This document shows positions 52,338 to 52,796 of a stretch of DNA of 64,000 bases, piece after piece. Origin of the DNA: Escherichia coli (GTDB lineage Bacteria > Pseudomonadota > Gammaproteobacteria > Enterobacterales > Enterobacteriaceae); NCBI RefSeq assembly GCF_003334815.1, contig NZ_QOWO01000008.1. One strand, written 5' to 3'. Both the position numbers and the translations under genes were made by a program. A model generated the notes under the pieces. That model had not been told where the DNA came from and made no database searches. It saw only the letters and a list, made by a program, of their open reading frames with translations. The number at the start of each line of letters is the position of its first letter. Within the stretch, counting starts at the first letter, position 1.

Positions 52338-52796
52338 ATGAATCCCCTGCGTGTCGATCTGCGCGCTGGCACCTTCGCCGCAGATCCACTCTTCCAGACG
52401 CTCGCTAAGCGCTTCATCCGTCAGCTTCTCGCGCCCACGTAACGCGCACTCCCAGACAATCAATACGCGCCAGCCGAGTTCCTGCAAGCGACTGATATCG
52501 CGGCGATCGCGCTCAACATTTTTACCTATCTTCTCCAGCCAGAACTCGGTTCGAGTCGCAGGCACTTTAAACAGATAGCAGTGATGATGATGCCAGAAGC
52601 AGCCGTGGGTAAATATCACGCAACAATATTCATCAACGACAAAATCCGGGCGTCCGGGCAGACTGGCGTCCTGAACGCGAAACGCCAGGCCCTGCCCGGT
52701 TAACAGACTGGCGAGGCGCTTCTCAATCGCCGTATCACGCGTGGCAATCGCGCGCATATTTTTGCTGCGAGTGGCCTTATCGTGAACGTCGGCCAT
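52326..52796 (-). CDS. vsr: Very-short-patch repair endonuclease
   Basis: Track ORF extends to 52958; recalled Vsr (156 aa) begins [28 protein letters not shown] at ATG 52796, inside the 3' end of dcm in another frame. Confidence 0.94.

Follow-up and report, generated by a model that had tools for sequence, protein, structure and literature searches.

The 20-nt overlap of dcm and vsr in Escherichia coli: a known junction, its distribution in Enterobacteriaceae and its bearing on translational coupling

Dcm methylates the inner cytosine of CCWGG, and deamination of 5-methylcytosine gives rise to a T:G mismatch. Vsr nicks 5' of the mismatched T, and repair of the very-short-patch (VSP) type begins. 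The dcm-vsr pair is a textbook example in which a mutagenic enzyme that modifies DNA is wired to the enzyme that repairs its own damage, and the question raised by the locus studied here is how this wiring is arranged: whether the two genes overlap as supposed, which codon starts vsr, and whether the overlap ties the synthesis of Vsr to the translation of dcm. The original prediction, made for a 64,000-nt stretch of E. coli DNA (the window, to which positions refer unless another sequence is named), was that dcm and vsr overlap by 20 nt in different frames at 52777-52796, that the vsr ATG at 52796 lies inside the final codons of dcm, and that this is a classical coupling arrangement, already known and conserved.

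The dcm-vsr junction and its gene products

Direct reading of the minus strand, together with RefSeq, gave exactly the predicted coordinates, the 20 nt running from 52796 down to 52777 and including the dcm stop codon, with the start codon of vsr within the final dcm codons (Table 1). The vsr frame is +1 relative to that of dcm. Six complete vsr codons and 2 nt more fall within the overlap, which on the dcm side covers the final seven codons, counting the stop. The minus strand reads, in the dcm frame, ...CGT CAG CAA GAG GCA CAA CAT GGC CGA CGT TCA CGA TAA, and in the vsr frame ATG GCC GAC GTT CAC GAT AAG GCC ACT... The vsr ATG precedes the dcm stop codon by 17 nt, and this TAA takes its T from the vsr codon for Asp6 (GAT) and its AA from that for Lys7 (AAG). 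Both genes lie on the same strand, and the start codon of vsr as well as its Shine-Dalgarno (SD) element are located inside the dcm coding sequence.

Table 1. Features of the dcm-vsr locus, with positions in the window
Feature	Position	Strand	Details
dcm, DNA-cytosine methyltransferase (CCWGG), 472 aa	52777..54195	-	ORF list, profile scores, RefSeq; TAA 52779..52777
vsr, very-short-patch repair T:G mismatch endonuclease, 156 aa	52326..52796	-	ATG 52796..52794, TGA 52328..52326
dcm/vsr overlap	52777..52796	-	ATGGCCGACGTTCACGATAA; direct reading; same bases in K-12
SD-like AAGAGG of vsr	52803..52808	-	6 nt upstream of ATG, within dcm codons Gln-Glu-Ala
Predicted mRNA hairpin enclosing vsr SD and AUG, 61 nt	52767..52827	-	E. 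coli sequence only
Candidate extended -10 element, TGnTAnnCT	54226..54234	-	TGTTAACCT; 31-39 nt upstream of dcm ATG
Near-perfect palindrome	54205..54223	-	CGGCCATCTCAGATGGCCG; 10 nt upstream of dcm ATG
vsr codon 58 (R58C)	52623..52625	-	relative to K-12 and 1CW0
vsr codon 131 (T131S)	52404..52406	-	relative to K-12 and 1CW0
Shared 3' ends of vsr (minus) and yedA (plus), 12 nt	52326..52337		convergent genes
yedJ (HD phosphohydrolase), gene upstream of dcm	54262..54957	-	NF007515, 459 bits
OmpC-family porin gene, intact, 405 aa	55899..57116	+	beyond drpB/yedR

The identities of both genes were borne out, each product scoring above a curated profile cutoff. Dcm reached 952 bits against the NCBIfam profile NF007772 (DNA cytosine methylase; cutoff 710) and 351 bits against TIGR00675; its translation contains the C5-methyltransferase motifs, including QFGNSV, and it is 100% identical to K-12 Dcm over residues 1-472. 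Vsr scored 179.2 bits against TIGR00632 (cutoff 97.85), with residues 1-118 lying on profile positions 1-119. Residues 2-156 of Vsr align gap-free with the PDB chain 1CW0_A, only R58C and T131S being different, and the protein also matches the PDB entries 1VSR and 1ODG. Its translation contains GRPD51F, THGC66FWHHH71HC73 and WEC117, so that the catalytic Asp51 and the Cys/His residues that serve as zinc ligands are retained; these roles were reportedly assigned by Tsutakawa et al. 1999. With ~99% identity to the characterised enzyme, Vsr is expected to nick 5' of the T in a T:G mismatch within CTWGG/CCWGG. Position 58 of Vsr is variable in other genera too, where H and Q are found.

The alignment with K-12 MG1655 showed how closely the locus follows the known one. 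A stretch of 201 nt with the junction at its centre agrees with MG1655 at 200 positions, the sole difference lying 56 nt downstream of the overlap, and the overlap, the SD and the start codon are base-for-base the same. RefSeq annotates MG1655 vsr (b1960) at 2030448..2030918 and dcm (b1961) at 2030899..2032317, which again gives a 20-nt overlap with the same frame relation. Strain 2273-PO3 of E. coli O15:H12 matches the 1961-nt region at 100% identity; in locus coordinates, its RefSeq annotation has dcm spanning 2566..3984 and vsr 3965..4435, also overlapping by 20 nt. At least 80% of the 1961-nt region was found in 5359 of 5426 complete E. coli genomes, and the 100-nt junction was found at 95% identity or more in 5320 of them and at 99% or more in 3574. 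The arrangement had been called known biology that is conserved here, and both the K-12 overlap and these counts agree with that description: the junction is the already known chromosomal E. coli operon junction, K-12-like, and nothing in it is new to biology. An intact, K-12-like locus leads us to expect a Dcm+ Vsr+ strain.

Exceptions were seen within the species. In 58 of the 5426 complete genomes there was no match to the region, and a minority keep vsr and yedA without most of dcm; in strain CM13 (NZ_CP114893.1), which is missing most of dcm, the query coverage is 31%.

The neighbours yedA, yedJ and drpB are the same here as in K-12 MG1655, and the convergent overlap of vsr and yedA is likewise annotated there (vsr from 2030448, yedA to 2030459). 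Apart from the two substitutions in Vsr, the locus differs from that of K-12 in having an intact ompC-like porin gene upstream of drpB. This OmpC-family gene is named ompC by RefSeq in the 100%-identical strain, and at its place K-12 has rseX and the yedS pseudogene.

The overlap across Enterobacteriaceae

We examined 80 species-representative Enterobacteriaceae loci encoding Vsr relatives, and located in each the position homologous to codon 1 of vsr. An intact dcm lies directly upstream of vsr in 59 of the 80. The overlap is exactly 20 nt in 49 of these 59 species (46 with ATG and three with GTG starts) and 14, 17 or 35 nt in eight; the remaining two (loci L079 and L082) have no overlap, the genes being separated by gaps of 35 and 12 nt. 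All 57 overlapping loci have vsr in the +1 frame and TAA as the stop of dcm, to which the vsr Asp6 codon (GAT, or AAT/AGT) contributes the T and the Lys7 codon the AA. In Siccibacter, where Asp6 is encoded by GAC, dcm continues, and the overlap becomes 35 nt.

The two proteins behave very differently at the junction. The tail of Dcm is variable (HGRRSR, HGGRSR, NDGCSQ, DGGRSR and others), whereas the N-terminus of Vsr is fixed. The third codon positions of vsr vary freely inside the overlap, and therefore the Dcm tail varies; a variable Dcm tail next to a fixed Vsr N-terminus argues that the vsr frame is the constrained one. In the non-overlapping loci Dcm ends ~11 residues earlier (...KKR*). 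Judged from these alignments, the last ~11 residues of Dcm are evidently a variable read-through tail over the vsr SD and first codons, and it is evidently the vsr frame that determines the overlap, the dcm stop being dictated by the conserved Asp6-Lys7 codons.

As the junction is present in 5320 of the 5426 E. coli genomes and an overlap in 57 of the 59 species, the overlap is no chance feature. It is also dispensable for the expression of Vsr, because two species have gapped gene pairs and 21 of the 80 carry vsr without an intact adjacent dcm. The retention of a conserved vsr at the yedJ/yedA locus in these 21 species could mean that Vsr has a role independent of a linked methylase. These by-products of the comparison, namely the dcm stop set by vsr codons, the variable Dcm tail and the persistence of vsr without adjacent dcm, are of minor interest.

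The loci without an adjacent dcm take several forms. Examples are L025, L034, L038, L041, L046, L054, L062, L064, L066, L067, L070 and L078 (around positions 2960-3001), and also L035, L037, L043 and L076. In Kosakonia, Phytobacter, Enterobacter sp. kpr-6 and others, the end of yedJ lies 9-18 nt before the vsr ATG. In Klebsiella indica (L028, 2853..3005) dcm is reduced to a short internal fragment, residues ~297-347, which is joined directly to the vsr SD and start, as if a deletion within dcm had spared vsr; a GntR-like ORF lies before vsr in K. oxytoca and K. spallanzanii. Escherichia sp. MOD1-EC7003 (L003) has a dcm reduced to its C-terminal ~166 residues. In Buttiauxella (L051, 713..3501; also L055, L059 and L071) dcm ends in ...KKR* with no overlap, and vsr follows after ~900 bp that include an ORF of 172 aa on the reverse strand with a signal-peptide-like N-terminus.

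Expression signals and the coupling of vsr to dcm

A simple scan for sigma-70-like promoters found none inside dcm; the same scan also missed a conserved extended -10-like motif, TGnTAnnCT, which we identified upstream of dcm, and its negative result is accordingly a weak test. Across the 33 species of alignment A3, positions T7, G8, T10, A11, C14 and T15 of this stretch are invariant. The element is a candidate promoter from which the dcm-vsr transcript, at least in part, likely originates. The sequence CCGGTTAA just before the dcm ATG is likewise conserved, and an obvious SD for dcm is absent. The palindrome listed in Table 1 occurs in Escherichia loci and is absent from other genera.

The GAG core of the vsr SD is the codon of a conserved Glu of Dcm, with G31 invariant and A32 at least 90% conserved (alignment A2). 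The predicted duplex with the anti-SD at vsr here has an energy of -5.8 kcal/mol, and we graded the SD as moderate. Median anti-SD pairing was -5.8 kcal/mol in the overlapping loci versus -7.8 kcal/mol in the non-overlapping ones (p=0.006, uncorrected for phylogeny). A weaker SD in overlapping loci fits a partial reliance on upstream translation.

Canonical translationally coupled pairs, such as trpE-trpD and trpB-trpA, have overlaps of 1 or 4 nt (TAATG or ATGA type). The dcm-vsr pair resembles this type in that the genes belong to a same-strand operon, the SD is embedded in the upstream coding sequence, and the downstream start lies beside or inside the upstream stop. It differs in that the vsr AUG lies 17 nt before the dcm stop; coupling would therefore involve either a backward move of the ribosome to reinitiate or the unfolding of the ribosome binding site (RBS).

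We consider it probable that the junction is explained by Vsr synthesis being tied to the translation of dcm mRNA. Ribosomes on the last dcm codons would keep the vsr initiation region unfolded; alternatively, they would end dcm translation 17 nt beyond the vsr AUG, then reinitiate at it. A cell making the mutagenic methylase would thereby also make some of the repair enzyme.

Published observations bear on this reading. The passages of PMC12907096 and PMC4924334 that cite Sohail 1990 describe one operon for dcm and vsr, and SMRT-Cappable-seq placed yedR-yedJ-dcm-vsr on single transcripts (bioRxiv 10.1101/262964). Where PMC4444293 cites Dar & Bhagwat 1993, it states that dcm "partially overlaps vsr" and that dcm-6, a nonsense allele at dcm codon 45, also abolishes vsr activity. 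This loss of Vsr agrees with coupling, and could equally result from Rho-dependent transcriptional polarity. VSP repair occurs mainly in stationary phase, according to the part of PMC2715241 that cites Macintyre 1999, so the output of Vsr is not simply proportional to that of Dcm, nor a fixed fraction of it. Taken from the literature in this way, translational coupling of dcm and vsr is plausible, and the arrangement is of the expected kind.

The same junction could also be read as two genes initiated independently. Free 30S subunits would then use the vsr SD, and the overlap would be a neutral by-product that arose when an ancestral dcm stop was lost or a spacer was deleted, so that the dcm frame ran on to the TAA in GAT-AAR. 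The vsr SD is usable, with good spacing and the -5.8 kcal/mol given above; conserved vsr codons fix the dcm stop, and the tail of Dcm varies under no apparent constraint. Gapped dcm-vsr pairs and dcm-less vsr loci do occur, and no conserved structure that would occlude the start was found, the AUG in E. coli lying in a predicted apical loop. However, a neutral by-product sits poorly with an overlap that is kept in 57 of 59 species with frame and stop preserved, and with an SD whose strength is lower where the genes overlap than in free-standing loci; the nonsense allele dcm-6, as related in the cited passage of PMC4444293, loses Vsr activity. Independent initiation thus strikes us as unlikely, and we retain the tying of Vsr synthesis to dcm translation as the preferred explanation.

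Folding of the mRNA gave a further candidate for control at the vsr RBS. The predicted E. coli hairpin has an energy of -25 kcal/mol and a z of -2.86, with 2 of 200 shuffles folding as well, and in it a portion of the SD is base-paired to codon 2 of vsr. Folding of a 140-nt context around the junction was unremarkable (z -0.92). Among 38 species no covariation was found at the hairpin pairs, which are kept at 67.8% versus 67.5% in shuffles, and RNAalifold returned no consensus structure for them. The junctions of 37 orthologues were not unusually stable (median z -0.2), and the RBS opening energies of overlapping and dcm-less loci were alike (p=0.26). A conserved RBS-masking hairpin is not supported, given the shuffle-level pairing, the missing RNAalifold consensus and the ordinary folding of the orthologues. 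As a lineage-specific translational gate, confined to E. coli and setting Vsr output independently of Dcm, the modelled hairpin is very doubtful; if such a gate were real, it would help explain stationary-phase VSP repair despite the shared dcm-vsr mRNA.

The start codon of vsr and related systems

The overlap depends on where vsr starts. The vsr frame is open across 52326..52958, that is, for 54 codons upstream of the ATG, and therefore the ORF alone cannot settle the start. This open frame within the window would accommodate an upstream TTG, and an in-frame ATG is present at codon 14 (Met14, 52757..52755); with either as the true start the overlap would be much longer or absent. The comparison of species points elsewhere. 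The N-terminus M[A/T/V]DVH[D/N/S]... is kept in 80 of 80 species, residues 1-13 being conserved also in those lacking an upstream dcm. In two Salmonella enterica subspecies (L013 and L014) an in-frame TAG directly precedes the vsr ATG, and in many other species an in-frame stop occurs 3-10 codons upstream with no start codon between. In four species (Superficieibacter and Raoultella) the vsr ATG has been lost; GTG comes next, and the start is shifted by one codon. The alignment with TIGR00632 begins at Vsr residue 1, the same ATG is annotated for K-12 vsr in RefSeq, and the K-12 alignment revealed no differing start. When its first 14 residues are missing, Vsr is less active both as an endonuclease and in repair (PMC2715241), which speaks against initiation at Met14. 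The upstream TTGs and Met14 were rejected as starts on the species comparison; a different start is extremely improbable, and the annotated ATG at 52796 is well supported.

A programmed +1 frameshift yielding a Dcm-Vsr fusion, with the internal AAGAGG and rare CGA codons as stimulators, has geometry only in its favour (vsr in the +1 frame, an upstream SD-like element and two CGA codons in the overlap) and was rejected as having next to no chance of being right, since there is no recognisable shift-prone motif and Vsr homologues are free-standing proteins of ~150 aa in loci without dcm, while descriptions of native Vsr have it as a small protein of its own, and the tail of Dcm is not conserved in sequence. 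Dar and Bhagwat, in 1993, reportedly found no Dcm-Vsr fusion.

Pairs of a 5-methylcytosine methylase and a Vsr-type T:G endonuclease are also found in Neisseria (V.Ngo) and Caulobacter (ScmA/VsrA) (PMC6116569, PMC12907096), and in this they are like Dcm and Vsr. Unlike dcm and vsr, the two Caulobacter genes are unlinked (PMC12907096). The Neisseria V.Ngo genes adjoin methyltransferase genes, sometimes truncated ones (PMC12907096). Compared with the Neisseria and Caulobacter pairs, the 20-nt dcm-vsr overlap is an enterobacterial feature.
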